Source of the DNA: Cyanidioschyzon merolae
Lineage: Eukaryota
Length of the DNA: 64,000 nucleotides
Assembly (NCBI GenBank): GCA_000091205.1
Contig: AP006491.2
Reading direction: 5' to 3' (one strand)
Shown: positions 8,584 through 52,381 of the stretch, piece after piece
Layout: each line of letters opens with the position of its first letter
Position numbering within the stretch: the first letter of the stretch is position 1
Program-made: the position numbers and the translations under genes
The notes under the pieces: model-generated
Database searches by the model: none
What the model was told of the DNA's origin: nothing
What the model saw: only the letters and a program-made list of their open reading frames with translations

Positions 8584-10444
8584 CCCTGAGGCCCGACTAC
8601 TGCCGCAGACCCAGTGCGTAGAACCGGGGTCGATGCTACTCCGAGAAACATGACCCCAGAGCTGCGCGCTCTGGGAGCAACGATCGCGACGTTGCGGAGC
8701 GGACATATTGAGACAAACATGCGACATGCGGTTGCGAGCCGGCATTGCCGCAGCAGCGTGTTCTGCGCTGGACGGCACGGTACGGGCCTCCTCGAAGGCT
8801 CCCTCGCATCCAAGCAAAAGTTTTGGGCATGCTTAGGATCGTTTACAAGAACTTGGGATCCCCATGGCGCTAAACTTATTTGCATCTGCTCGAAACCTCC
8901 ATGTTCCGCGAGACAGTACCACCTATACTTCCTCGCTGAGAAAATTAGTGGTATCCATGGGAATCGCGTCACTGATCGGCATGAGTCCGTTAAAGCAGCG
9001 CAGTACTGGTGCGGTCGAGAGCGTTTCCTTCCTGGTCTTCTGCGAAGGCATGCGTCTCTGGGTGTACTTTTGCTTTGCAGAGAGGCTGGTCCGTGTTCGG
9101 GGCATAGGAGGCCGATCGACGCTTTGACGAGGTCATCACGTATGGACAACGCGTCGAGTTGGATCTTTGAACTCGACTCGTGGTCGAGAATGGACGCGAG
9201 CGTCACGATTCGGTGCAGGCAATGGAAACGCACTGATGGCTCAGTGCGGATTCCGAAGCATTCTTGGGACAGCGTTGCCTCCTTGGGTGCAGTTCACACG
9301 TCGCTGGCACGACCGACAAAGCGCACATCGACGCGGATCGTGCTCCCAAATCACCGGCGAGTGTAAGGTTGTTCCCGAAAACCCCGAATGTGTGCGTCAC
9401 AATTTTGTTCCTTGCTGCTGGAAGTGAGGCGATGGCGGCTGCAGCGTGTGCGCGCTCGCGTTCAGGGGCGCAGATGCGCTCCCGCCGCGCTGCGACTCGC
9501 CGAAACGATCCCTCCCGGAGCGTTCGCCCGCAGACGCGAAACGATGTGGCGCCCTATCCATAGAAGCAGGACCCCGGGACATTAGGTCTCACGCGTTGCA
9601 GGGTTGTCCCTGAACACGTCACCGAATCGTTGACCGCGCACGGGTCGTTGCGCATTCGCGCGCGTGCGCTCCGCTCGACTCTCGTTCTGCGTGAACGAAC
9701 GGTGCACCAGGGGGCTCCGTTGGGACGCGTCGCCGCCCAACATTCTAGGTGCTTGCCAGCTGTTGGTGCCGGCCTCTGCGTCATGGTCTTGGGAAAGATT
9801 AGCACTCGATGCAAGTCATAAAACAGCTCGATCCCTGCTCCAAGTCGCGTTGCAACAGACCAGTCCCGGGCTTTGGGGCGCGTTCCTCTGTGTCGCGGTG
9901 TCGCTATCCAGCCTACGCATTTTGAACTGTCCAAATATGCAATTGGAGGCACCGCCTGCGTGCGTCTCCTAGACCTGAAAGACGAGCGATCTGCATTGCT
10001 CGTTGCCCGCAGTCAGCAAATTTATTCGCGCCTGCTCCGCCGAATGACTCCACGAAACACAACTGCTTGACGATGACGAAGTGCCAGACATGAACCCGTA
10101 GCACGCACTGCATTCGCTGCAGTGCACGTGAGCGGATCCTGGCGAAGCAGCTGGTACGGCAGGGGGTGGCGGGCGCGCCCTCTCTAGCGGTGCGCAGCGG
10201 TCGCCAGCTGGAATCGCACGGCTCCGTCCGCTATGTCTCATTAGATACATTTATGTACGGTGATGTTCGCTGTCATGCTCCGTCGATGCTCCGGGGGCGC
10301 CCGCACTGCACCCGCGTACAAGTACCCTGGCCGACAAGTACTGCCAACGATTCAGAAAAGCGCTTCGGAGCTGCTTTGTAGACTGGCTTCCAGACACCGC
10401 CAGTTTGGTAAGATTATCACAGTACGGAGAAGAAACCGTAAACG

Positions 10445-17060: not shown

Positions 17061-18044
17061 TTACCGAGTCGACGCTGCAGACGTCGCATTCCGAAGCGAG
17101 TCCTGGGCCAGCAGAGAACGCTCGGTTAACAGACCAGCACGCACGACGCGTACTGGTTTCTTCGGTGTATTGCGGGGGCGGTTGCTTCCTACCTCTTCGA
17201 TGCGTCGAATCGTGTCCATACCGTCAAGAACCTGCCCCAAAGGCACGTATTTGCCGTCCAGATACCCGGCATCGGAACCGGTCGTGATGAAAAACCTGCC
17301 GTCGCCCTCGTTGCGGTCGTTGCGGACCAAACCGACCAGACCTGCACGATCGAAGCGCAAGCGCGGAGCTTCTAGTAACCATCGTTCGCTTCGGGGCACT
17401 GGGTCACCCGCTTGCAACGTCAGTCCCGGCACAATGCGGTAGAATGACGTGTTCGTGTACCTGTGGATACAGCAGTCGAGGAAATGTGCACTCGACACAG
17501 GCGCCACCTCGCCAAAGACTCCAATAACGATTCGACCAGCCGGTTGGCCATCGATCTCAATGTCGAGGTAGCAGCGGTCAGTGATCTGTGGGGCCAAGTC
17601 GTCCAGCGCCTTCAGCGCAGAGTCGCGCTTCGCGCCATTCGATTCGCTCGCAGCCAGAGCCGTGCTTTGCAGTGACATCGTTCGAGCTGAGGCAGCTGCT
17701 GTAGGCGGCGTACCGTTAGACAGCTGATGCTCCACAAATCTCTGCAGTGGAATGTCGGAGGCGTTGCAGGTTTGCCAAGATTCGGGTGCGCGTTCCAGAT
17801 GCGTACCTACGAACCCTGATGGCAATGCGTCTGTGTCCGCTGCAGAAGCAATGACAACAGCGGAAGCAGACTTTGGCAAAGAAGCTCTTGTTGCTGTTGG
17901 CGCTTCTGGACGGGCCTCAGCAACACGACCTGGACCTGGCATTGGAGCCATTGCAGCGTCGACAGAGGCGAACGGCAGCCATAAACTCAACGCGCTCCAG
18001 GCTACGGCCAGGATGATAGCACTTGCCTGAAATGGCACTTGCTT
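17061..18044 (-). CDS. Cyclophilin-type peptidyl-prolyl isomerase-like domain protein preceded by a signal-peptide-like hydrophobic segment, in frame with the upstream aminopeptidase ORF
   Basis: C-terminal 150 aa: CYLDIEIDGQPAGRIVIGVFGEVAPVSSAHF...SFYRIVPGLTLQAGD...GRFFITTGSDAGYLDGKYVPLGQVLDGMDTIRRIEEV, collinear with the CypA core (FHRIIPGFMCQGGD, FFICT..LDGKHVVFGKV). It is divergent: W121->Y and H126->Y equivalents. The upstream segment RKQVPFQASAIILAVAWSALSLWLPFASVDAA|MAP resembles an n-h-c signal peptide. There is no in-frame stop between this and the M24B aminopeptidase. Confidence 0.65.
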   Translation of the reverse strand, partial: KQVPFQASAIILAVAWSALSLWLPFASVDAAMAPMPGPGRVAEARPEAPTATRASLPKSASAVVIASAADTDALPSGFVGTHLERAPESWQTCNASDIPLQRFVEHQLSNGTPPTAAASARTMSLQSTALAASESNGAKRDSALKALDDLAPQITDRCYLDIEIDGQPAGRIVIGVFGEVAPVSSAHFLDCCIHRYTNTSFYRIVPGLTLQAGDPVPRSERWLLEAPRLRFDRAGLVGLVRNDRNEGDGRFFITTGSDAGYLDGKYVPLGQVLDGMDTIRRIEEVGSNRPRNTPKKPVRVVRAGLLTERSLLAQDSLRNATSAASTR

Positions 18045-18134
18045 ACGTCCAACCGAATCCGAGGAGCGTGCACCACCACCGGAAGGCGCACCAGTAGCGG
18101 TCTCGTTGCGCGTAGCACCAGCGGGGGTATCCCC

Positions 18135-20315
18135 ATGCGACTGGCGTTGGATGGGTGCACAGGCGCGTTCCAGCCACCGAAGAACAGCGGTCTCGTTACG
18201 TTCCTTCAAGCACGGTGCAATGCGTTCATACACTTCACGATGATAATGATTCAGCCAGGCGATCTCTTCATCAGACATCTGATCCAAGTCTAGTAAATCG
18301 GTGGATATCGGGACCATGGTCAAACGCTCAAACCCCAGAAACCGCTGACCACCAAAACTGCGCGCCGTCTCTACTGGTCGAACCACGAGCAGATTCTCAA
18401 TCCGAATACCAAATTCGCCATCCTCGTAGTAGCCGGGTTCGTTACTTAGAATCATGCCTGGTCGTAAGCCAACCGATGCAGCGTTCATTCTCGGAGAGAT
18501 GCTCTGCGGGCCTTCGTGGACGTTCAGCGCTGCCCCGACACCATGCCCCGTGCCGTGGCGATAATCCAGACCCAGACCCCATAGCGAGCGTCGAGCAAAG
18601 CTGTCCAGCAGTGTACCAGGGGTATTCTCTGGGAACACCGCCGTATCAATCGCAATATGGCCCCGCAGCACGCTCGTGTAGCAGCTCCGCACGTACGCGT
18701 CAGGTTTCCAAGTCGTGCGTTGTCCGCCGAGGAACAAAGTGCGCGTTACGTCCGTGGTACCGTCGACGTACTGGCCGCCAGAATCCAACAGGAGCACGCT
18801 ATTCGGCTCCCAGGTCCGACATTCATTCGGATCCGCGCGGTAGTGGATAATGGCGCCATTCGGACCGAGTCCCGCGATCGTATCGAATGAAGTGAATAGG
18901 AATCCTGATTCTTCGGCGCGAAACGCGGTGAGCCTCTCCGCGATGATGTGCTCATTCAATGCGCTGTACTTGGAGCTATCTTCACTGATCCGCTCCACCT
19001 CTGATTCCAGCCAGTGAAAGAACCGGCAAAGAGCGACTCCGTCACGAAGATGTGCCGCACGCATCCCAGCTAATTCCACGTCATTCTTGATCGCTTTCAT
19101 CAACGAGAGCGGTGTGGTATGCAGATACACTGCCTGAAGGCGACGTCGGAGGATCGCTGGATCCTCTTGAGCGGCAACGAAGCTATCCGCATCCAAGCCA
19201 GCGGCATGAAGCAGCATAGCCAACGAGACACTCGAAGGATCCATCCACAGGCGCTGCTTGCCTGGGCCGTAGTGTTCCCGTAGATACGATGCACACGCTT
19301 CATAGGGGCGCGTCTGAACCCCGTTCGCACGCAAATGTTCCTGGACGGCGACAGCGTTCGCCCCATCAAGTTTGGATGTGTCTACGAACAGTAGTGCGTC
19401 GCCCTCGCGGGGTACTAGGCCGTATGCCAGCACAACCGGACAATGTGGGATATCCTCCCCGCGAATGTTGAAAAGCCACGCAACCTCATCGAGCATGGAC
19501 ACGAAGACGCCGTCGACTCCTTCAGACATTTTTTGCCGGATTGCGGCAATTTTCTCCGCTGTAGATTGCCCAGCGTACTCCAGTGGATGAACTCGTACTG
19601 GGTTCGTCGGTAGCGACGGGCGCTTTGCTCCCCAGATCCGATCGACTGGGTGAGCCACAGCCTCCGGCAACGGCACAAGATGGATATCGAGTTCGAGCAC
19701 CCGGGAAACCCAGGCGTAGTGATGCACAAGCGGGTCGATGCCGACGCGATAGATACGACCAGCGCGTCTATGTTCACGGGAGCGTTCGGCGAGAAAATCT
19801 TCCAAAGTTGGCGTACCTGGCGTGCCCGTCTTCATGAGTCGCCAGCCCTCGGGCAGCTGCCGCTCAGCCTGAAGGAAGTACCGGCCATCCGTCCAAAGAT
19901 ACGCCTCCGCGTCGCTGCTGGTCACCAGGGCGGTCCCGGCGGAACCAGTGAAGCTCGTGAGGAACTCGCGTCGCGCATAGTGTGGCGGAGGATACTCCGA
20001 CTGATGCGGGTCTGCAGTTGGGACAATGAAAGCGTCGAGTGACTGTGAACGAAGCCAGCCTCGAACTGCCTCAACTTTGTCCGCAAGCGCAAAGACGTGG
20101 ACGTGTTTTCGATGTTGCCTTCGCGGTGTCTCTTCTTGGGGTCGATCTCGTACGAGCCTTTCCTGTCGCCTCGAACTTCGAAACCTGGTCCAGAGAAGCC
20201 GTCTGTTGCTTGGCGCTCCAGGAGCAAACGGCCGCCGCGTTACCAGACTGAGGCAACGACCGAGTTGTGGCTGCGACAGCCGTCCCGACGCCACGCTACC
20301 TGTGTGTAACCACAT
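18135..20315 (-). CDS. Xaa-Pro aminopeptidase (aminopeptidase P, M24B family) with ~75-aa Arg/Ser-rich N-terminal extension (possible mitochondrial presequence)
   Basis: AFIVPTADPHQSEYPPPHYARREFLTSFTGSAG...HGTGHGVGAALNVHEGPQ...EPGYYEDGEFGIRIENLLVV...WLNHYH, collinear with XPNPEP1/3. The ORF continues 3' without a stop into the cyclophilin-like region. The boundary at 18135 is set by homology only. Confidence 0.85.
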
Positions 20316-34806: not shown

Positions 34807-37800
34807 TTATGCGCTGGTGCTGGTGCTGGTAGTGTTCACGAGCTGTTGCACGGATACTGCCGTCACCGTACCGTTCGGTGGAAATACAGACCTAACCATC
34901 CCAAAGACGAATAAGACACTCATGAGGTTCTCAACAGGTTTCGTGTTGTTTGGCAGTGTCAGTAGCTGAACAGCACCGGTGGTTGTCACATTAAGCGGAA
35001 CACGTAATGCGTATGGGATCGTTCCATTCGCACTTGCCGCTTGCGTGACATTCACGTCCTGGATACCTGTGATGTTGCGCACAGCCGATACGAAGCGATC
35101 ACGGAAGAGAGCGTTTCGGGTGGCGTTTGTAAAGTCCTCCACGGAGACGCCCTCCATCTGGAAGGCCACATTGATCGCTGCTTTGCCTGCTGGTGGTGAC
35201 GGGAAAGCGGCCAGGTTCGCCGGCCCCGGAACCGGGGATGCTGCCGGCGTTGGCGATGCTTCGCAGAGCAGACCCGAAAAGCCCGGCACACAGTAGCAAA
35301 CGCCATTGATGCAGGCACCATTACCGTTACAGCAGGTTGCGGTCGTCGCGTTCTCCGCCGTTATGCCCGCCGGTCGGCACGAGCTGACGCAAAGTGTTCC
35401 ATTCAAGTCGAATAGGCGACTTGGCTGTGCCAACGAGTACAGAGGAGGAAGCTCCGATGGTCTACCCAAAAAGTCCAGGGAGGTAATGTTCTTGGTAGGC
35501 GTGACCCGAACGGTGATATTCGGGCTCGATGCTGCCCTCGCGACACTGATGTACGTCTCCGTGGAGACGCTCGTGGTCGTCTCCAGCCGAGTATACTCGC
35601 TCGCAACAACCTGTCCAAATGAACCGGACTGCACTGTGCTTTGCAGCGTCGAGTAAACGGATAAGTACTCCACCACAGACGACATGACACGTACAGAGAT
35701 GCGATTGGCGTGCCAGCGCACACCAGTCGCGGAGCTTGACGAGCTCGTGTAGGTCACGAGGCCATTGCTCTGGGCCTGAACTCCATTGCAACTAGAAGGA
35801 GCGCTGCCGCCTGTGGAAGTCGAGAGACATTCGCAGTTGGTGATCTCGACCGCAGTGGGCACCAGACCACACGAGCTTGCTAATGTGTTCTGCACGATAT
35901 ACGAAATCTGGTCACACGTCCAAACGTTGATCTGCTCGACGACCTCGACGTCAATCTGCCATTCATACCAAACAATGCAGACAGGAGGCCGTTTGACGAC
36001 CACCTCGACCCATTTCACGGGAGCCGGAGCAACCGCAGATACGTATTCAGCGGTCGAGGTTACCAGCTGCGAGTACTGAACGATATCGGTATAGAGTTCG
36101 CCACCGCCACACTTGGACTGATACAGCTGAACACGTTGCCAAAAGTAGTTATTCACGAAGTTGTCACGAATTGCATACGTGTACTGGATCGTGTACGTGG
36201 AAAACGTCTCCAAGCGGATGTGGACGACTGCATTCCAGGTATCGATTTGCTCACACGAATGGATCGTTACGATTTCGCTCGGTATGCCAATATCGTTGCA
36301 CGAGTTCAGGATCGCCACTTTGACATCATTGCAGCTCAGAACCTGCGTACCAAAGAATGCAGATCGACAGTAAAACGCTGTCTCAATGAAGACTCGCCGC
36401 GGATAGATCTGTACTGGGACATAAATGATGCTGGTGCTCTGTTCCAGGACAACGGACGTTACTTGCTCGTATTCGACGGTGCTCACGGTGAGCGACGGCG
36501 AGATTACTGTCGTCGTCTCGCTAGCGCTGACATACAAACTCTGCAGATACACGTAAGCCTGGTACATCCGTTCTTGCCAGTTTGCCGGTGCATACTCGGG
36601 AACGATCGAGCAGGCAACGTAGATAGAGCACTCTGTCTCGATAGACAAATGCAAACTGCCCTTGCGTGGCTGGCTATAAAGCAGACTTTGGCTGCCATCA
36701 TCCTGCACCATGAGCAGAGGTTGTGCGGAACGCCGACTTGTGCCGGAGCCAGAGCTCGCCAGATTCACCACAACATCTGTCTCCGTGAAAGACTCGACAT
36801 CCAAAAAGGCATAGTAGTAGACGCGCTGTGCTGTGGATATAACTTCCGAGCAACTCGCACTCACGCCGACCGCGATCCGAATGGTCGGATTGTCTGGCAA
36901 GACTATCTTGTTGGTCGGAAGCGGACTACCATTCGGGAGCGCTGTGAGGTTGGGGGTTGGTGTTGGCGGAGGTACTGGCTTTCCCGCGCCGCTCGGCAGA
37001 TTAAGTGTAGTGATACTCGTGACAGAGAGTAAGCTCGCGAGTTTCACCTGCACAGTGCTGGCCTCTGAAACTGCCACGACCACAAAGACGGTGAATTGAA
37101 TATTCACTGCGACTGTAGTCGATGTGGTAACGCGCATCTTGGTAGAATCTCGATCCCCCATGAATTCCGAGAACCATCTCAGAGGAGCCAACAGTCCCAA
37201 ACGTGAGGAACTCGTTGAGGTCGGAGCAGCAGCACAGTTGTTCGAGACGGTAACATTGGATGCCGGCACGCCGAGAGCAGATGCAACTGCAGCGGCGATC
37301 GCTGACGCTGCAGACTGACAAACCTCTGCGGAGGTGACAGAAAGGTACGTGCCCTGAGATACTGTTGTAATAGCGGGTGTCGGTGGTGGCGTCGGTGCTG
37401 ATGTCGGAGTAAAGGTTGCCGACACGCTCGGGGACGTGCTCGGTGATACCGAGGTACTCGGTGAGCTCGTTGGCAAATGCGACGCACTTGGTGAAGGGCT
37501 CGGTGATACCGATGTACTCGGTGAGCTCGTTGGCAAATGCGACGCACTTGGTGAAGGGCTCGGTGATACCGAGGTACTCGGCGAGCTCGTTGGCAAATGC
37601 GACGCACTTGGTGAAGGGCTCGGTGATACCGAGGTACTCGGCGAGCTCGTTGGCAAATGCGACGCACTTGGTGAAGGTGTCAGTGGTTCCGAACTCGGAG
37701 ACGGTGCCGCGGTAACCGGCGAGCTTATGCTTGATGATGGATGCAATGTAATGCTCGGTGATGCGTGGAACGTTGCGCTGCTTCCAGCCGAGGCTGAACG

Positions 37801-38571
37801 AGAGGGGCTCAACGTCCCAGTCAGCACAGTCGATATCGATGGCGAAGGCACTACTGAGCTAAATCCAGTGCTTGTCGATGACGGCATTGGTGTCAAGGTT
37901 TCCGCGGCACCAGAACTCGGTGAAGGGCTTCCAATGCTCGAGGGTGATACGGCGTGAGTTGGTAGTGTGCTCCCTGGAATCGTTGTTGTCGACGACGGCG
38001 TTGGCACCACAGTTGGTGTCCCCGCAGACGCAGAGGCATGTGTCGATGTCGGTGTCAGCAATGATGTAGGTGTAGGTGAAGGCGTTGGAGTCGGCGTCGG
38101 CGTCGGTGTCGGTGTCGGTGTCAGCAACGGCGTAAGTGTAGGTGTAGGTGTAGGTGTAGGTGTAGGTGTAGGCGTTGGAGTCGGCGTCGGCGTCGGTGTC
38201 GGTGTCGGTGTCAGCAACGGCGTCGGTGTCGGTGTCGGTGTCAGCAACGGCGTCGGCGTCGGTGTCGGTGTCAGCAATGATGTAGGTGTAGGTGTAGGTG
38301 AAGGCGTTGGAGTCGGCGTCGGCGTCGGCGTCGGTGTCAGCAACGGCGTAGGTGTAGGTGTAGGTGTAGGTGAAGGCGTTGGAGTCGGCGTCGGCGTCGG
38401 TGTCGGTGTCGGTGTCAGCAACGGCGTCGGCGTCGGTGTCGGTGTCAGCAATGATGTAGGTGTAGGTGTAGGTGAAGGCGTTGGAGTCGGCGTCGGCGTC
38501 GGCGTCGGCGTCGGTGTCGGTGTCAGCAACGGCGTAGGTGTAGGTGTAGGTGTAGGTGAAGGCGTTGGAGT

Positions 38572-38608
<37 letters not shown>

Positions 38609-38856
38609 ACTGACACCGAGGGTAACGGTCTCACAACGTCCGGAACTTGGGGAAACTCCGTCTCCCCCTCAGCCTGGTGTGGCTCTGCGAGCACCAACAA
38701 TGACCCCCGCTCAGCTCTCCCTGTGTGCTTACCCCATAACTTCCAGTTGAGCGGTAAGCTGCCACCTAGCAAAAGGAGAATAAAAAACGTGAACAAAAAG
38801 TGACGGAGCGCAGCTTTTTGAAAAGCCGCCATCTCCGTTTTGCTATTAGTCTGCAA
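34807..38856 (-). CDS. Giant secreted mucin-like glycoprotein A: signal peptide, P/T/S-rich tandem repeats, ~900-aa Cys-containing conserved domain, one tenascin-type EGF-like module
   Basis: N-terminus [24 protein letters not shown] (signal), then PTPTPT.. and 20-aa [20 protein letters not shown] repeats. The central domain is paralogous to that of the 46017..50837 protein (e.g. [14 protein letters not shown].., [51 protein letters not shown]). The EGF-like module is [44 protein letters not shown]. No TM segment before the stop. Confidence 0.8.
37421..37690. repeat. 60-bp coding minisatellite (~4.3 units) inside mucin A, encoding 20-aa [20 protein letters not shown] repeats
   Basis: cggtgatacc gaggtactcg gtgagctcgt tggcaaatgc gacgcacttg gtgaagggct repeated at 37441, 37501, 37561 and 37621 with 1-2 substitutions. 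Confidence 0.9.
38040..38625. repeat. Hexamer-based (GGTGTC/GGCGTC/GGTGTA)n array with higher-order periodicity, encoding (PT)n / TPTP tracts of mucin A
   Basis: Seen directly: long runs of ggtgtcggtgtcggcgtc.. interrupted regularly by gtcagcaacggc / gtcagcaatgat. Confidence 0.85.
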
Positions 38857-40216: not shown

Positions 40217-40918
40217 TTATAGATCCACGTAACTATCGACCGGTTCGGCATTTCCACCACCGCAATCCCCACATTTTTTGACAAGACCAAAGCAGGCCCT
40301 CCCGCACATGCAGGTGCCTCGGAGTACAAGTAAAAATATGATCAAAATGAGAAGCAGAACCGCACCCACAGGAGCTACAATAAAGATGATTATCGAATCT
40401 CCCTGCGAGCCGGAGTTGGACGTACTTGGCACCTGCGGAGTCGGCGACACCGTGATCGACGCTAGAGCGAATGAAGTCATATGCAGGTTCGACACCGCTC
40501 TTGTGACCTGCGCCGACGCCGTCGCCGCATAGGACGCGGGAAAAGGCACCAGCGTTGGCAATTGCTCCGCTGTCGGTAGGGGTGAGGTTTCTGCGGGTGT
40601 TGGCGACGGCAACGACCGCGATGGCGAAGACTCCGCCGATGGCGACGGCGATGGCGATGGTTCCGTGTGCGCAAAGCGTCCGACCCCTGGGTACCTCTCT
40701 ATCAAAATCCCACCGTTTTCAGCGGGAACAGCGCGGAATGATGCGCGCGGTTCGAGACCTCTCATGAAAACCGCGACTTGCTCCGCGTTGTGAGACACGG
40801 CTGAAATCGACACTGGGACTGTCGGCTTCGTTGTTGTGGATAACAGTGACCTGCGACGCTGGTGCCTCGCAACGAGCCGCCGCGGCTGCCAAGCACTTTT
40901 CCGAAAGTGAGCACACAT
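40217..40918 (-). CDS. Possible small single-pass membrane protein with S/P-rich ectodomain and Cys-rich cytoplasmic tail
   Basis: 233-aa ORF: [29 protein letters not shown].., TM IIIFIVAPVGAVLLLILIIFLLVL, then RGTCMCGRACFGLVKKCGDCGGG. No clear signal peptide at the ORF start. No homology. Confidence 0.3.
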   Translation of the reverse strand: MCAHFRKSAWQPRRLVARHQRRRSLLSTTTKPTVPVSISAVSHNAEQVAVFMRGLEPRASFRAVPAENGGILIERYPGVGRFAHTEPSPSPSPSAESSPSRSLPSPTPAETSPLPTAEQLPTLVPFPASYAATASAQVTRAVSNLHMTSFALASITVSPTPQVPSTSNSGSQGDSIIIFIVAPVGAVLLLILIIFLLVLRGTCMCGRACFGLVKKCGDCGGGNAEPVDSYVDL

Positions 40919-43829: not shown

Positions 43830-46016
43830 TCAGCGCGTCACCGAGGTGCTGCGCGATCGCGAGCGCTTTCGCTGAGACAATACACTCAGTGCAGCAGCGG
43901 AACTCGAACGCACCAGCTTTGTACTCGAGGGCGGCAAGGCCCCTGGCATGCTTCCCTCGAGAGCGCCCTTGCCCGCGAGCATGTCCGACGCTGTAGGCAC
44001 GAGAGCTTCAATGAATGCACGAGCGTCGAGCATACAACTTCCACCAAAGAACACCTGCGTGCCGCTCGACTCCGAAAGATCATAGGCGTACCGCGTCTCA
44101 TTCCACGAGAGGCCGCCAATGACAAAGATAATGATGCGACGCGTCGCAGACTCGTCTACGCTGCCAACCGATGACGAAGAGGAACGTCGACGATTGCGAC
44201 GACCGAGAGACGACTCACGGATTGCCGACGACGAACGACGCCTGCGAAGACTTCGACTCGTGCGGCGAATACCGCTCTCCTCGTCATCGGTAGAGAAATC
44301 GGAGAGCTCACCGGCTGACGAGTCGTCGGACATGTACGCGCGATCGAAGTGGCGGCTCTCGCCGGCATACGGGAACGCGGACTCACCGAGGCGACGCTCG
44401 ATAAGCAATGTCGCAAGTTTCGCGAGCCGTCCATGGGTCTGTTGCATGGCTTGCATCTCCGATGGCGTCTTCCGCAACGGCACTCCGTAGGCGATGCACA
44501 AACGCTCAATGACAGCGGTCAGCTGCGGTGCAGTCCGGATATCCGATGCTGTGGTAGAGGTTCCAGTCGATGCACTCGACCCTGCCGAAGTACTCGAAAG
44601 CGCCGCCGATCCCTGTGACGATCCCCATGACTGGTGCTCCCCGAATGAAGAGCGAGCAAATGCCATCGAGACCAGCTCCTGAATCTCAGCTGTGCTCGTA
44701 TTCTGCGTGAGCGCAAACAATACAATCAGACGAGCTTTGTCCACCAGGCGAATATTGTCCTCGTCGAGCAATTGTCGCAGCTGTCCTCGGACACGCGTTT
44801 CAGCATCGGTACCGACGACACGCTGCGCATTGAGCATGTCTCGTTCGAGAGCAGCAATCCTGGCGATTTGCGCATTCTCCCAGAGATCCTGCGCGCGACG
44901 AGCCAGGCGCTGGTGACGCTCCAGTGACGCAGCGTCGGCATCGCTAGGCAGCAAAACGTTCGAGTCGGAGGTGCTCGTGGCGAGCGCGCCTCGTTTCGCG
45001 GTCCGGAGGCGCCCGACCTGCTCCACTGGGCGATAGCGCACGAGGCTCCAGACATCGTCAGCGTACTCATCGAGCACCAGCTGGGATCCAGCACCGCTAT
45101 CAGCCTCCAGCAACGAAGGGAATTCCTGCTTCAGCACCGTCTGATACGTATCATCGTGCAACAGGGGCGTCAACAGATCGCAGTCTCTGTCAACAATGAG
45201 GAGCACCGTCCGAGAAGCTCCAGCTCGAGGAGCGGATCCCGCTCTTGTCGGCAGAATGAGAGGACCGTACTCGTCGAGTATCCTGACGAGCTCCTCTGCG
45301 ACGGCTGCGGGTGCGCCCGTGAACGAGTCTCGCGCGAAACGGATACGCGGTCGCTCCTGCAGTACGGAGCACAGCGTCAACAAGGACTCGGCAATGGTTT
45401 GCGGCCGCACCGGCTGCAGATCCGCAGGATAACGGCCGAGATGAAACAGGCGCTGCTCGAATGCACAGAAATCGATGTTGAGTTCCGTGAACTGCGCAAG
45501 CCGTTCGACGAGCTGCGATGCCGCCCGAACTCGATCAAGATACGTTTCGTCGACGCGAGATGTCGCGAAAACTTCAATGATGGTCTTGCTGGAGACCTTG
45601 GGCGTCTCCGAGTCATCGTGTTCTCCGCTTCCTCTGTCAGACGCTTTGGTCACATGTTCAAGCGACGCAATCAGCGTATTCACCGCGTTCGACGTCGGCT
45701 TGAAGAGGTACACGAGACGCCGACCTTGGTCGCTTGGCGGCAACGCGTTGAGCGTTGGCGGCTGCTGACCAAGTTCCTCAACAAGGAACACACCATTGCC
45801 CACGAGGTCACTCATGCGGCACGCTGCAGACAATACCTGGATGCCGCGATCGTCTGCTACTAGCATTCCGGGAGCGCGACGCTGATCAGCGGAGCTGCCG
45901 CGGGAGTCTTCCGCACCGGCAAGCGACGACCTTGCTGTGCCCGCCAGCATGCCGTACAGCAGGCGCTCTCGCGCGAGTTCGCGCAGTGTGGCGTTCGGGC
46001 CCACAACCAGAGGCAT
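43830..46016 (-). CDS. Sec1/Munc18 (SM) family vesicle-fusion regulator, complete
   Basis: [24 protein letters not shown].. aligns to the Munc18 N-terminus (MAPIGLKAVVGEKIM). Conserved blocks: [14 protein letters not shown], the SM signature [23 protein letters not shown], and the C-terminal [22 protein letters not shown]...[18 protein letters not shown]. The ATG at 46016 was verified on the sequence. It is in frame with, and not separated by a stop from, the upstream mucin-like ORF. Confidence 0.88.
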
Positions 46017-49000
46017 GGTAACCACATTGGCGCTGTCGACTGTGCCCAGTGCGGCAGCTGTGCTGCCAGTTGGTCTCAACGCTGCCACATCAACGGTATC
46101 GTTCTGGGAGACTCGGGATCCGGGAGCTATTCCCGCGAGTGCCGCTGACGACGGCACTGTGCCTGTTCGGTTGCGCTGGCGTTGCTGTCGACGTCGCCTT
46201 CGCCGCAAGAAAAGCCATACAGCCAACACGGCGAGAATCAGGGCAGCAGCACCGGCCACAGCGCCTCCAATGATTGCCCCCAGAGGTGCACCCGAGCCAG
46301 ATCCGCTGCCGGAAATCTGAGAGGGGTCACCTGTGGCGACACGTCGCACCTCCACTGATACCACGGATCCATTTGGAGGGAACGCCTGTCGAACTTGCTC
46401 ATAGAGGAACACAGTGCTTAGCAGACGGGTGACCACATTCACATCGCTCGGTTTCAGGATCAACTGTACGGCGCCGGTAGTGGTGACACTCGTCGGTGCC
46501 CGCATCAACATGTAATGCAGGGAATTATAGGACTCGCTGCCGCCGACCACGTGAATGCGTACCAACGAGATCTGCGCAATGGACTGGATGCTTTGCATCA
46601 GCAAATCGCGGAAGCGGGCGTTGTTGGTGCTGTTGTAGAACTGACTATACGACACGCCACGCAATTCCATCAAGAGATCCACGGCATCGTAGCCCGAAGG
46701 AGGCGGCGGAAAGCTCGGTAACGCCAAACTGGATGGCGAAGGCGACGCAGACGCTGTCGACGACGACGACGACGATGATGATGAAGGCGCATTCTGGCAC
46801 AGCAAACCTCGATAGCCACCAACGCAGTAGCAGACGCCACTGACGCATACCCCGTTTCCACTGCAGCAGTTTGCCGGCGAGACGTCCGAATCGTTGATGC
46901 CAGGCGGCCGGCACGAAGCGGTGCATATCCTTCCACTGAGATCATACAATCGCCCGGGCTGGACGACGGAATAGAGCGGCTCCAATGTCGACGGTTTGCC
47001 CAAAAAGTCCAACGAGACTAGACTCCGGTTCTGGGAAATCTGAATGCTCACATTTCCATTCGTACTGGAATTGTGATGGCTACGCTGATGACGAAGCTCA
47101 CGAAGCTTCCTCGCAAAGGTGTTCTTGATGTGTGCCGAGTGGTACGCAGTGGTCATATTTTGGCTCACATTCTGTGCCTGGAAAGCATTCGTCAGCACTC
47201 GACCGGAAACACGATTGTAGTGCCATTGCACTGCGCCAGCTGACGTGTTCGTACCGGCAGGTGTTGGGCTCGCGGTTGGCATCGGCGTCTCTGTACCTGA
47301 CCGCACAGGTGCTGATGTTACCGTCTCTGGAGGCGACGCGGTTGCACTCGCAACAATGGCGTTCGCTGTCGGGGTGACAAGCACCGCAGATGGCGTCGGC
47401 GCAACGCTTGAACTGAGCGGCAAGACTGTGCTCGTGGGAGTTGTCGTCGACATTGGTGCCGACTCGAAAATGACCTCTCCGCTGCTGGTCGTGGTGAAAC
47501 CGCTGCAGCTCGCCGGAACGCTACCCTGTCCATTGACCGCGATACACTCACAATTCTCGATGACAATTTCGGAGACGAAGACGCCGCAAACCTCGGCGAG
47601 CGTCTGCTGCATCACATACGCAACCTCAGAACACGTCCAGTACTCGACGACGTCCAGTGCCTGACAGTAGTATTCCCATTCGATCCAGACGCCGCCAACT
47701 GCAGGCCGCTCGGTCACGACTTCAACCCATTTCACTGGCGTTGGCGTTGGCGTTGGCGTTGGCGTTGCGGATGGAGCGGCGTAGCTGCTGGTACCGATCA
47801 CGTCGATGTACGAGTATTGCACGATATCGGTGTAAAACTCGACGCTGCCACAACTGGTTTCGTAGGTATTCACCTGCTCAAAGTAGTAGCCATTCTGGAT
47901 ATTGTCTCGCAAGGCGGCAGTGAACCCGGAAGCATACGTCGAGTACGTATCGATTTGGAGGTGCACCACCACGTCCCATTCGTTGACCTGCTCGCAGGAG
48001 CGAATCGTCACCACCTCGGACGGGATTCCGATATTGTCGCAACTGTTCAATATCGCTGTCTGCATCGAGTTACAGCTTAGTCGAACGGAGCCGGGCGACG
48101 CCGAGCCGCAGTACAAGGAGGTCCGAAGGTAGACACGACGAGGATAGACGGGCACCGGCTCGTAGACAAGATTGTCGCTGTTTCCAAGCAACGCCTCCAC
48201 GACACTCTCCTGCTGGGTGTACGTCAGCGAAGTGACGCTTTCAGAGTTCAGCGTCGTCAACGTCACTGTTGTTGATGTTTCGGCTTGCATAATGATCTCG
48301 CTCTGTAGCGTGTATGCTGCTTGATAGTTGCGCTGTTGCCAGTTTGCCGGGGCGTACCTGGGGTAGACTGCGCACGCTACGCTGAATGTATAGGTCGTAG
48401 AATAGCTGAGACGAAGAGCACCCTTACGTGAGCGCCGCCAACTTGTCAAACCGCGTAACCCGTTTTGAACGAGATCGGACGGCGGTGCACCCGCTCGCAT
48501 CACTTGAGACGAAGAGCACGGGCTCAGAGAAACATCCTCCAACGTGAAATCGGGAATGTCCGCGAATGCGTTGTAGTATGCCGTTTTCGCCGCGGCTTGA
48601 ATCGCCTCGCAGGAAATGTTTGCGTTTCCGGGAATCTGTATCGTGGGCTGGTCAGCAAATACAAGTTTTTGCTGAGGGATCGGGCTACCATTCGGAAGCG
48701 TGTTCAGTAGCGGGGTCGGTGTGGGAGGTGGCGACGGAGGTCCGACTCCTTGTGCGAGGCGCTGATGACGCAACGAGGTCGAGCTCAGCAGCTTGTTGAG
48801 TTCTTGCTGAGCTTGACTCGCATTAGATACGGGTACTGTTGCGAAAACAGTAAATTGCACAAGGCCACCGGCCCCAGAGCTCGTCTGACGGAACAGCGTC
48901 GTAAGGAATGGTAAATCGAACGACGCACCCGCTGGGAGAAAGCGCTGGATGCGTTCCTGTAGCAGTACTTCTCGATTCAGCGGCAAGCCTGAAGAGAAGC

Positions 49001-50837
49001 ATCCATCGGACACGGTGACAGCACTCGGCGATATGCCCAAGGCGGATGCAACTGACGCAGACAGAGCAAGCGATGCGGACGAGCATGAAGCCTCAGTTCG
49101 AACAGAGAGGAAGGCGCGCCCAACAATGGACGTCGTAGCGGGTGTTGGTGATGTTGACGGTGCAGGCGTGCTTGTCGCGTTGCTCACAACAGGCGTCGAT
49201 GATACAGAAGGCGACGGTGCAGGCGTGCTTGTCGCGTTGCTCACAACAGGCGTCGATGATACAGATGGCGACGGTGCAGGCGTGCTTGTCGTGTTGCTCA
49301 CAACAGGCGTCGATGATACAGATGGTAGAGGCGTAGGCGTGCTTGTCGCATTGCTCACAACAGGCGTCGATGATACAGAAGGCGACGGTGCAGGCGTGCT
49401 TGTCGTGTTGCTCACAGCAGGCGTCGATGATACAGATGGTAGAGGCGTAGGCGTGCTTGTCGCGTTGCTCACAACAGGCGTCGATGATACAGATGGCGAC
49501 GGTGCAGGCGTGCTTGTCGTGTTGCTCACAACAGGCGTCGATGATACAGAAGGCGACGGTGCAGGCGTGCTTGTCGCGTTGCTCACAACAGGCGTCGATG
49601 ATACAGAAGGCGACGGTGCAGGCGTGCTTGTCGCGTTGCTCACAACAGGCGTCGATGATACAGAAGGCGACGGTGCAGGCGTGCTTGTCGCGTTGCTCAC
49701 AACAGGCGTCGATGATACAGATGGTAGAGGCGTAGGCGTGGGCGTGGGCGTGGGCGTCGGTGTTGGCGTAGGTGTCGGTGTTGGCGTAGGTGTCGGTGTT
49801 GGCGTAGGCGTCGGTGTCGGCGTAGGTGTCGGCGTAGGTGTCGGCGTAGGTGTCGGCGTAGGTGTCGGCGTAGGTGTCGGCGTAGGTGTCGGCGTAGGTG
49901 TCGGTGTCGGCGTAGGTGTCGGTGTCGGCGTAGGTGTCGGTGTTGGCGTAGGAGTAGGCGTAGGTGTCGGTGTTGGCGTAGGAGTAGGCGTAGGCGTCGG
50001 TGTTGGCGTTGGCGTTGGCGTTGCCCGACGGGTAGACGTCATTGCCGGTGTTGAAGAGGCAAGCGAATCTACAAGGCTGTTTCCATGAATGTAACTATCT
50101 CGCGGCCGAGACGTCGGTGTCGCAGAGCCTGTCCCTGAACTCGTTAAACTTGGTGTGAAAATCGCACTCCCACTGTTTGAGCTAATTCCCGTTCCTGTGG
50201 ATGATGCAGAAGCGGAACTAGTCGCGGTATTCACGCCGAAGCTGGGCGATGGTTGCAAAATAGGCTGAACAGTAGGTCCTGTTGTGTGCTGCGTATTCGG
50301 TGATGGTGATGGAGTTGGTGTAGGAGACGGTAACGGTGTCGGTGTAGGCGTCGGTGTAGGTGTAGGTGTAGGTGTAGGTGTAGGCGACCTCATAGGTGTT
50401 GGCGTCAGCGCTACCGTGGGTGTGCTCAGCGCCGGTGTCGAGACGGGACCGGGCGTCGAACTAGTTATGCTGGTTGGTGGCCCAGACACCGCTGAAACCC
50501 CAGAGTCCGTCGAGGTGCCACTCCCGCCTGTCGACGCAGCAGTGCTCGTCCCTGTAGATGTAGGTCCCGTGAAGCTGGTGCCACTACTGCTACTGTCAGT
50601 GAGGCCACCAGGCCCAGAGTTACGCCCGCCCAAAGCAGGACGCAGCATCTCGAACCAGTCGCGTTCCTCGAGTGACACATGGTCACTTTGCGAGGGTGCC
50701 TGTCGCGGACCCGCCGCGCTTGCGCAAGCCCGAATCGGTCCCCAAACTAGCGAAAGCAATAATAATAAAGATAGAACAAGAAAAATTAACGTTCCATATC
50801 TTGATCCTCTCATCGTGCGTAAAGTGCCTTCATTCAT
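46017..50837 (-). CDS. Giant mucin-like type I membrane glycoprotein B (paralog of 34807..38856): signal peptide, S/T/P repeats, conserved ~900-aa Cys-containing domain, EGF-like module, TM helix and polybasic stop-transfer
   Basis: [25 protein letters not shown] (signal). (TP)n tracts and 19-aa [19 protein letters not shown] repeats. The core is paralogous to mucin A. The EGF-like module is [69 protein letters not shown] is followed by [13 protein letters not shown]. The 3' boundary is undefined: no in-frame stop before the Sec1 ATG at 46016. Confidence 0.75.
49140..49740. repeat. 57-bp coding minisatellite (~10.5 units) inside mucin B, encoding 19-aa [13 protein letters not shown](A/T)TSTPA repeats
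   Basis: gatgatacaga(a/t)ggcgacggtgcaggcgtgcttgtcg(c/t)gttgctcacaacaggcgtc recurs with period 57 (starts at 49198, 49255, 49312 ...). Confidence 0.9.
49741..50040. repeat. Hexamer (GGCGTG/GGTGTC/GGCGTA)n array encoding (TP)n of mucin B; begins with the G-quadruplex-type run (GGGCGT)4
   Basis: ggcgtgggcgtgggcgtgggcgtcggtgttggcgtaggtgtcgg... seen directly. A further short array lies at 50290-50400. Confidence 0.85.
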
Positions 50838-52381
50838 CGTTCTAATAAGAAGTCCTTACGGAATATGCCCAGGCTGGACGATACGCGTTGCGGGAGGAAT
50901 GCCACCGGCGGATGCGCACGCCAAATTTGGCGCGAACACGTGTCGTGTACACGGATCGGGAGCTCACAGATAGACACGTGTTGCGATGACACGTGTCCTC
51001 GACGCATAACGCTGCGATTGCGTGCTCGCCACAGAGCATCGGTGATCTCGGGTCCATCGCCATTGCGCGGATATGTAGGGATACGGGATCGGTGAATCGT
51101 ATCGGATTATTCTAAAAATTCAAACGCTAGAACAAGTCTGAAGGAGCGTGATCTCAGATACCGCGAGACGCATCTACGTTTCACCGAGTACACAACAAAT
51201 CCGTTCAGGCGCATAAACTCGATCGATAAAACGACGTAGGTTTTCCGGACTCCGTGTCTTCCGAGGTGCCTTGTGGTGGCGCTGTCGGTGCGGCTGCGGA
51301 CGCCGCGTGAAGGCACGACGACTTGGACGTAGACTTATGGGAGTCGGTGCAAGCAACGAGCGCTGTGAAGTATGGTCGCTCGCTCGAACCAGAGGACCTT
51401 CTGATCGATCTAGTGTGAGACGTTCCCCGTCCAGTCAGGGGACCTCCTCAAGCTCCGCGTTCAGTCTCAATGGTATCGCTGGGACACGCCATGGAGAGCT
51501 GCGATTCAGTCTTTTATCGCGCAGTGCACATTCATCGCTGACAATTGTGGTCTGAGGCTCTTTCGAGAAGAATCAGGACTCCATCCCAGGTCTTCATGGT
51601 CGGTCACCCCTTTAGGGGTCGACTTGTTACTCCGACGCACAAATCCGTAGCAAATCGAGAATCAACGGATCGTGAAGGTTTTCTCGAGTTGCAACGTGCC
51701 CTGGAAAATCTCATGCAACAGCTGCGAAAATCTGGATATAAAATTGCCCCAAGCAGCGACTTTGCGTGAACACAGACGCAGCTCATCCACCAGCGAGTTT
51801 CAGGGAAAACTCGCAATATGAGGCTACCGTCGCACCGAGCAGGTAACGAGCGCGGGCGCAAACGTACCTCGCTCGTCAGCTAGTTTCAGGGACGGGACCG
51901 CCCCAGCCGCCTCGGCTGCAGCGAAGTGCGACGAGAAGAGTCCCGCTTCCATTCTTTCAAAATCATGGTGCACCTCGGAGGGCTCCTGTTCGACCATTGT
52001 CCATCGTTCGCGTACAGCACCTGCTCGGGAGCAGCAACCACGTCCGATTGCACGTGTGCGACGAAGTCTTCAATCACCTCGTACTTTTGCATCGCACACG
52101 AATCCCCCGCGTTCCGTACGTACTCGGATGCACCGTATTTTGCAGCAGAGCACGCTGAAGCCAGAGGGCAAGCGCCCTGCCACGCCTGTAGGAAATCCTT
52201 CCGTCGAGGTTGCTGCGCACGCATAAAAGTCCACGATCATTTGAGTTTATTTGCCAATACTATACAACTCATACTCCCGTGCATCATACATCGACTGATG
52301 GATGCGAGAGCTTTCCAGAATGCAACTTTCCATGAATAAGCGACACACGCGCTGTACTGCCAAATACTTGAACAACATGTC

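Follow-up and report, generated by a model that had tools for sequence, protein, structure and literature searches.

CMI070C, a gene on chromosome 9 of the red alga Cyanidioschyzon merolae 10D, is read here as encoding one type I membrane glycoprotein that carries a complete Sec1/Munc18 (SM) domain on the cytosolic side of the membrane via a disordered linker. We put the probability of this reading at about 85%; the function of the protein would presumably lie in exocytosis. SM proteins are universal and essential SNARE partners and are treated as soluble factors that need to be recruited to membranes. The gene lies in a 64,000-nt stretch of DNA, hereafter the window, and its open reading frame (ORF) spans positions 43830..50837 of the minus strand with 2335 codons and an ATG start, exactly as described in an earlier note written from the DNA alone. 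That note had listed a genuine membrane-tethered SM protein with its SM domain in the cytosol as one of several options without choosing among them; this option is now supported by comparative evidence. Six neighbouring ORFs match annotated C. merolae 10D chromosome 9 proteins exactly (HPPD CMI063C, alternative oxidase CMI072C, CMI062C, CMI076C, Mrs2 CMI065C and aminopeptidase P CMI061C).

SM domain and predicted membrane anchor

The C-terminal part of the protein matches Pfam family Sec1 (PF00995) with 170.7 bits (cut-off 30.7; E 1e-49) over profile positions 3-574 of 575. The closest relatives of known structure found by phmmer in the PDB are Munc18-1 (E 1e-22) and squid Sec1, with 83 bits for Munc18-1 versus 27 bits for Vps45 and no match to Sly1 or Vps33. 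An AlphaFold model of residues 1380-2335, built on a 20-sequence alignment, shows an SM core with a predicted local distance difference test score (pLDDT) of 85-93, broken by low-confidence lineage-specific inserts. When compared with Foldseek, this model matches Munc18-1, Munc18-2, squid Sec1, Vps45 and Unc18 with E values of 1e-28 to 1e-24 (best Munc18 match 1.7e-28) and TM-scores, normalised to the target, of 0.71-0.76, consistent with a predicted three-domain, arch-shaped SM fold. All named database matches to the family core are STXBP1/2, ROP or Sec1-like, and the domain is assigned by sequence to the exocytic Sec1/Munc18 subfamily, at the level of best hits and not of phylogeny. A full-length SM protein, as proposed in the earlier note, is therefore confirmed by the near-complete PF00995 coverage and the SM fold match.

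The core columns of the domain are shared with canonical SM proteins, and its ratio of nonsynonymous to synonymous change (dN/dS) against a relative with 66% identity, introduced below, is ~0.1, a sign of strong purifying selection; both observations fit, indirectly, a protein that would bind a cognate Qa-SNARE (syntaxin) and template SNARE assembly. The domain further contains low-complexity inserts that are specific to the lineage, as well as an R/S-rich loop ahead of the last strand. This R/S-rich, acidic-flanked insert (~44090-44290, minus strand; SM residues ~575-640) is found in all anchored family members and in no canonical SM proteins and may be a phospho-regulated loop. The usual SM trait of being soluble or peripheral, lacking both signal peptide and transmembrane helix, does not apply to CMI070C, where the same ORF carries both upstream. 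A signal peptide, an ectodomain and a transmembrane helix precede the SM domain within one ORF in CMI070C and eight homologs.

The membrane anchor consists of a single transmembrane helix with a Kyte-Doolittle value of 2.64 over residues 1526-1544 and a polybasic stop-transfer directly after it. The segment is predicted as a long helix (residues 145-176 of the AlphaFold model), and a transmembrane helix at the equivalent position is present in all nine homologs. The 63-aa linker that follows is predicted to be disordered (pLDDT <50). Both the helix with its polybasic flank and the tail of 63 residues between membrane and SM domain had been proposed in the earlier note, and the hydropathy scan and helix model bear them out. 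Since the density of N-glycosylation sequons drops about fourfold across the helix, from ~1.5 per 100 aa on the ectodomain side to 0.41 in the SM part, an N-out, C-in topology fits.

Conservation of the fusion and of its junction

The family was found by an exhaustive HMMER search of 1.84 billion protein representatives. Distant homologs are encoded in Galdieria sulphuraria (GJD10261.1 and XP_005708010.1), G. partita (GJQ08927.1) and Cyanidiococcus yangmingshanensis (KAF6001990.1) and by three metagenome proteins, with 22-28% identity over the whole length and ~30-36% over the SM core. In every one of them, a transmembrane helix with a basic inner flank is followed by a linker of 59-84 aa and the SM helix-1 motif L[RK]x[LM]xx[EA][RH][LI][LF]. 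Other family members place different ectodomains ahead of this common cassette of transmembrane helix, linker and SM domain. Among the best 150 SM representatives of the 1.84 billion proteins, a transmembrane helix upstream of the SM domain occurs only in the CMI070C clade; the named canonical relatives are 585-607 aa long. A word-index protein search was swamped by low-complexity words and returned one close relative with a 956-aa query and two fragments with the family profile; the same search, similarly swamped, found no C. merolae paralog with the P0088 core as query. Judged from these comparisons, the fusion is old, stable and so far confined to Cyanidiophyceae, a group of hot-spring red algae. 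It would have arisen once, when an SM gene was joined, at what had been its start codon, to a gene for a transmembrane glycoprotein; throughout the Cyanidiophyceae it would since have been retained and, with varying ectodomains, duplicated.

The junction itself can be compared with a close relative, 66% identical, that was recovered from metagenomes and a metagenome-assembled genome (P0001/P0002; GCA_041825655.1; loci L001-L005). This relative reads as one ORF through juxtamembrane module, transmembrane helix, linker and SM domain. Its synonymous sites are saturated relative to CMI070C (proportion of synonymous differences, pS, ~0.7). The linker retains 49% amino acid identity with a proportion of nonsynonymous differences (pN) of 0.32 versus a pS of 0.70 (dN/dS ~0.2), and its three indels of 3, 18 and 3 nt are all in frame. 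Such saturation would scramble unconstrained DNA, and the linker therefore evolves as coding sequence. The earlier note had suggested checking orthologous loci for a stop codon between the transmembrane helix and the SM domain: class-wide, none of the nine homologs has one, and the fusion is kept.

Within the linker, a block reading S(Q/R)NDT(V/I)DV(A/G)AL(R/K)P (~46095-46113, minus strand) is conserved. The block is kept even at third codon positions (AACGATACCRTTGATGTGG), despite the otherwise saturated synonymous sites, and a similar RNDETDIS is found in the distant homolog P0249. It could be a sorting motif, a phosphorylation motif or a nucleotide-level element.

Two of the explanations offered in the earlier note would do away with the fusion altogether. 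The ORF might run through two adjacent genes, one for the mucin and one for Sec1, either separated by a short spacer that happens to be free of stops or with the mucin stop created by splicing or polyadenylation. The SM part indeed begins at an ATG precisely where a stand-alone SM protein would begin, and at this base composition 63 codons lack a stop by chance in ~10% of cases (our own calculation). Nevertheless, we regard this explanation as very improbable, as the frame is stop-free in nine homologs from across the class, purifying selection acts on the linker, whose indels are all in frame, and the fusion is also present in gene models made independently for the intron-containing Galdieria genomes. 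Because C. merolae is nearly intron-free, with introns in only ~26 genes, and the intergenic spacers within the window measure 1.4-5 kb, a spacer below 200 nt or a hidden intron would moreover be atypical here. An unrecognised intron was likewise rejected, given the near absence of introns and an amino acid similarity that continues across the whole linker. Still closer to nil is the chance that the junction is a sequencing or assembly artefact in which a frameshift was introduced or a stop lost. The long tandem repeats of the gene are hard to assemble, and the assemblies of the 66% relative have a frame break in a collapsed mucin repeat, but the junction lies 2.9 kb from the repeats and recurs free of indels in five Logan assemblies from different runs, in several contigs of C. 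merolae-like strains from JGI and in a divergent species. Over 2841 nt, the Logan and JGI assemblies show 8-9 substitutions against the window, with no indel and no stop, and an assembly error is excluded because independent read-level assemblies share the junction. The Logan contigs spanning it (L006-L010) are of unstated DNA or RNA origin and serve as assembly evidence, not transcript evidence; none has a poly(A) end, and one finishes with an Illumina adapter. Neither the two-gene option nor the frameshift option of the earlier note is thus borne out.

Other alternatives accept the long protein and concern what is made from it. Met 1608 (nt 46016) aligns with the N-termini of canonical SM proteins. 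Of seven lineages, four have a Met 9-12 residues ahead of helix 1. The other three (G. sulphuraria, Cyanidiococcus P0091 and the P0249 lineage) lack one anywhere near the beginning of the SM domain, which in these can be made only within the long protein. The simplest reading of the sequences is that ATG 46016 is a fossil of the original SM start codon, marking the point of fusion. The earlier note had seen a Munc18-like N-terminus of its own at this ATG. The ATG is real and sits at the canonical position, but it is not conserved family-wide and is best read as a fossil. Were it still in use, the gene would have a dual output, consisting of the long anchored protein and a soluble 728-aa Sec1 made from ATG 46016 through an internal promoter or internal initiation, with the anchor as an extra regulatory form. 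The canonical initiator position of Met 1608 would fit this, as would its ACCATG context, identical in the 66% relative despite saturated synonymous sites, and the occurrence of a Met at -9 to -12 in four of seven lineages, which exceeds the expectation from a Met frequency of ~2%. We nonetheless hold dual output to be unlikely: three lineages have no Met there, the 189 nt upstream are constrained coding sequence that offers no promoter-sized gap, and a transmembrane-free Unc-18-like gene, CMD164C, is already listed for C. merolae. It is improbable, too, that the fused protein is a mere delivery vehicle whose SM domain is cut off at the destination, either in the linker or inside the membrane, and enters the cytosol. 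Speaking for such release are the length and disorder of the linker, a short block conserved in it, S(Q/R)NDT(V/I)DV, with the similar RNDETDIS of P0249, and a transmembrane helix that is Gly/Ala-rich, a composition common among intramembrane protease substrates. Against this, the family conserves no recognisable protease site, there is no experimental hint of cleavage, and release would be a roundabout route to a cytosolic protein.

Several points weigh against reading CMI070C as a single anchored SM protein or narrow what the reading implies. That one mRNA and one polypeptide are made is deduced from sequence conservation, and the conserved start context at Met 1608, together with the Met in four of seven lineages, leaves room for a soluble isoform. 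Exact look-ups of the 2335-aa ORF, of a version starting at M9, of the 728-aa SM part and of a 946-aa version found none of them in the protein collection. In the table of a recent data set (PMC13353863), a SignalP call is given for the Cyanidium and Galdieria homologs and none for the annotated C. merolae model. The Phobius counts of transmembrane segments in the same table are imperfect, as Sly1 also scores 1. Finally, CMD164C is listed there as Unc-18-like without a transmembrane segment, meaning that the anchored form is not the sole Sec1-type protein, and the function set out below, as an exocyst substitute coupled to the wall, is a proposal only.

Proposed function and relation to known SM proteins

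Ten SM genes each have been counted in C. merolae, Cyanidiococcus and Cyanidium and eight in Galdieria (PMC13353863, 2026). These 8-10 genes far exceed the canonical four. In this data set, CMI070C is listed as an SM protein with one transmembrane segment and is expressed at ~39 transcripts per million (TPM) in diploid MS1, ~1.4 in haploid MS1 and ~40 in 10D (PMC13353863). Cyanidium g153 and g912 and G. partita g718 and g1423 are SM proteins with a signal peptide and 1-3 transmembrane segments, and their expression in the walled diploid phase is higher by a factor of ~10 to 60 (PMC13353863). The text of that study treats SM proteins only as possible partners of the syntaxin SYP1 in wall construction and does not discuss anchoring. 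C. merolae has also been reported to have too few subunits for a canonical exocyst (PMC1810245, PMC6784791).

In the topology supported by sequence, comparison and modelling, the signal peptide, the heavily glycosylatable mucin stalk, the Cys-rich ectodomain and the juxtamembrane module face the lumen or cell exterior, the helix and its polybasic inner flank fix the orientation, and the linker of ~60 aa holds the SM domain on the cytosolic face. In the proposed mechanism, the protein would travel the secretory pathway to the plasma membrane. There, the SM domain, a template for SNARE assembly, would be kept permanently beside the plasma-membrane syntaxin SYP1 and act in cis, and exocytosis could be localised or licensed at those sites of the extracellular matrix or nascent wall that the ectodomain occupies. 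As these algae cannot build a canonical exocyst, a covalent anchor could take the place of the recruitment by which soluble Sec1 normally reaches the membrane. The anchor could further couple exocytosis to the building of wall or matrix, especially in the walled diploid phase, in which several members are strongly induced. An engineered, transmembrane-anchored peptide of Munc18c domain 3a stimulates fusion, and does so only from the t-SNARE membrane (PMC9547204), which makes an anchored arrangement mechanistically plausible. The anchored proteins probably work alongside a conventional Sec1, because the transmembrane-free CMD164C exists. We tentatively hypothesize, and consider it possible but doubtful, that Cyanidiophyceae have replaced or supplemented the recruitment of soluble Sec1 by a family of type I surface glycoproteins that bear the SM protein as their tail, with a wall or matrix glycoprotein physically marking the site and time of SNARE-driven exocytosis. 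Such a covalent coupling of cargo or landmark to the fusion machinery would stand in for the exocyst during diploid wall formation.

Canonical SM proteins such as Munc18-1/STXBP1, yeast Sec1p and Arabidopsis KEULE/SEC11 have the full PF00995 domain, the three-domain fold and the N-terminal helix motif in common with CMI070C, whose SM domain finds its best matches, in sequence and structure, in Munc18-1/2, squid Sec1 and Monosiga Unc18. The canonical proteins differ in being ~590-650 aa long and soluble or peripheral, without signal peptide or transmembrane helix, and in being recruited via syntaxin, the exocyst or Mso1, whereas the SM domain of CMI070C forms the C-terminal tail of a 2335-aa type I glycoprotein and, unlike theirs, contains extra low-complexity inserts and the R/S-rich loop. 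Membrane mucins of the MUC1 type have the signal peptide, the tandem repeats rich in Ser, Thr and Pro (S/T/P) and the single transmembrane helix in common with CMI070C. Membrane mucins and sensors also share the compact juxtamembrane alpha/beta module, the Gly/Ala-rich start of the transmembrane helix and the basic inner flank, and the fungal Msb2, Wsc and Mid2 sensors show a general likeness. Their tails, however, are short signalling tails, none of which contains an SM domain. Vps33, as part of HOPS/CORVET, provides a further parallel in that its SM activity is kept at a membrane by means other than the binding of SNAREs by the protein itself, but Vps16 and Rab-binding subunits recruit it non-covalently. 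The anchored Munc18c peptide is an artificial construct of only 25 residues (PMC9547204), while CMI070C would be a whole natural SM domain anchored covalently.

The literature searched, which did not extend to subscription journals, describes no natural transmembrane-anchored SM protein and does not discuss these genes as such. The sequence itself is not new: the gene model is public as CMI070C (BAM79972.1), and homologs in Galdieria and Cyanidiococcus are annotated as Sec1 or syntaxin-binding. A membrane-tethered SM protein had been called unprecedented in the earlier note, and this stands insofar as no discussion of anchoring was found; it does not stand for the gene models, which are already in GenBank and listed as SM proteins with signal peptide or transmembrane segment (PMC13353863).

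If the anchored reading is correct, the Sec1/Munc18 subfamily can do without a free, cycling SM protein. The family would then be a natural experiment on which membrane an SM protein must occupy and how much reach it needs, with the linker kept at 59-84 aa, and may explain directed secretion in cells without a canonical exocyst and myosin. The idea is directly testable, as C. merolae allows gene targeting and its diploid walled stage can now be cultured. For annotation, CMI070C is to stay one gene, and its family is to be labelled as membrane-anchored SM proteins.

Ectodomain, neighbouring genes and other features of the window

The features of the fused ORF are compiled in Table 1. In the signal peptide, residues 17-35 make up the hydrophobic core (Kyte-Doolittle 2.63), with ACA|SA after it; this hydropathy scan supports the cleavable signal peptide proposed in the earlier note. 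The mucin-like region of 550 aa consists of 68% S/T/P, and Tandem Repeats Finder resolves the repeats noted earlier into a (TP)n tract at 49729-50021 and a 57-nt (19-aa) unit in 9.9 copies at 49156-49721, each copy containing an NAT or NTT sequon. The mucin part of the 66% relative lies in a different frame from the remainder of its ORF (L003/L004/L005, ~9930-9960). The 1-nt break falls just after a single copy of the 19-aa repeat and is identical in three assemblies; it is probably a tandem-repeat collapse in short-read assembly, the alternative being a real frameshift.

Table 1 Features of the CMI070C reading frame in the window
Feature	Residues	Position	Strand	Basis
Start codon and N-terminal signal peptide	1-40	50718..50837	-	ORF listing, hydropathy scan
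Mucin-like S/T/P-rich region	41-590	49068..50717	-	Tandem Repeats Finder, composition, sequon counts
Cys-rich ectodomain	591-1384	46686..49067	-	Pfam, PDB, alignment
EGF-like Cys module (candidate)	1325-1350	~46788-46865	-	Cys spacing, sub-threshold Pfam
Juxtamembrane alpha/beta module (predicted)	1385-1510 (126 aa)	46308..46685	-	AlphaFold, alignment
Single transmembrane helix (predicted)	1519-1544	46206..46283	-	hydropathy, AlphaFold
Polybasic stop-transfer and cytosolic linker (predicted)	1545-1607	46017..46205	-	AlphaFold, codon comparison
Complete SM domain	1608-2335 (728 aa)	43833..46016	-	Pfam, phmmer, AlphaFold/Foldseek, dN/dS, N-terminal alignment
Stop codon of the fused ORF		43830..43832	-	ORF listing

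The Cys-rich ectodomain, put at ~900 aa in the earlier note, measures 794 aa and contains 23 Cys and 10 sequons. It is 43% identical to the corresponding part of the neighbouring gene CMI068C and 70% to that of the relative P0002, and searches of Pfam and the PDB found no family and no relative for it. An AlphaFold model of the ectodomain, based on a 4-sequence alignment, was uninformative (mean pLDDT 36) and was not used. Near its C-terminal end, six Cys are spaced, by eye only, as in an epidermal growth factor (EGF) module. The EGF-like module named in the earlier note thus persists as a Cys pattern, but its membership in an EGF family is not established, since the Pfam matches to EGF_Teneurin (E 0.002-0.008; 16.6-18.5 bits) stay below the cut-off of 24.3.

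The juxtamembrane module is predicted to have a beta-alpha-beta-beta-alpha-beta order (pLDDT ~70-84) and can be recognised by alignment across family members and in CMI068C. It has no match in Pfam, including SEA, WSC or any other family, and Foldseek returned only weak ferredoxin-like matches (E ~0.1). At the end of the module, a string containing NGSVVSV (46320..46352, minus strand) resembles the G|SVVV autoproteolysis site of SEA domains. The string, however, forms part of the last predicted strand and is not conserved in distant family members; together with the missing Pfam SEA match and the weak ferredoxin-like Foldseek matches, this leaves SEA-type autoproteolysis unsupported.

The next annotated gene downstream, CMI068C (34807..38856, minus strand), is a 43% identical paralog of the ectodomain only. 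It comprises a signal peptide, TP repeats, a Cys-rich domain, an EGF-like module and a juxtamembrane module, and its stop falls exactly where the transmembrane helix of CMI070C starts; it lacks an SM part, and no transmembrane segment follows downstream in any frame. Because CMI068C ends before the membrane segment, the ectodomain also exists as a free secreted protein. The Cyanidium counterpart of CMI068C is strongly diploid-specific (PMC13353863).

Between the two genes, an ORF at 40217..40918 (minus strand) encodes a 233-aa type I, S/P-rich protein with one transmembrane segment and a Cys-rich tail, whose protein-database matches are unannotated metagenome entries only. The ORF has no GenBank BAM accession and is listed as CMX064C in the 2026 data set, with ~700 TPM in diploid MS1 versus ~1 in haploid MS1 (PMC13353863). 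CMX064C, CMI068C and CMI070C form a small cluster of diploid-induced surface proteins.

Rfam and tRNA scans across the window gave no matches. A scan of the junction for bacterial-type promoters and terminators, unsuited to a eukaryote, gave a single chance terminator-like match. Three plus-strand ORFs (48949..50088, 50284..50973 and 37967..38803) were rejected as genes, as their GV/GVGV repeats mirror the TP repeats of the coding strand. The TP repeats also account for the GC-skew peaks that lie at 36-40 kb and 48-50 kb.

Another single-ORF fusion is found in CMI061C (17061..20315, minus strand; 1084 aa), an exact match to BAM79964.1. It combines an X-Pro aminopeptidase (Creatinase_N, Peptidase_M24 and M24_C), followed by a hydrophobic stretch, with a cyclophilin domain, and its metagenome relatives keep the combination of aminopeptidase and cyclophilin in a 954-aa form.

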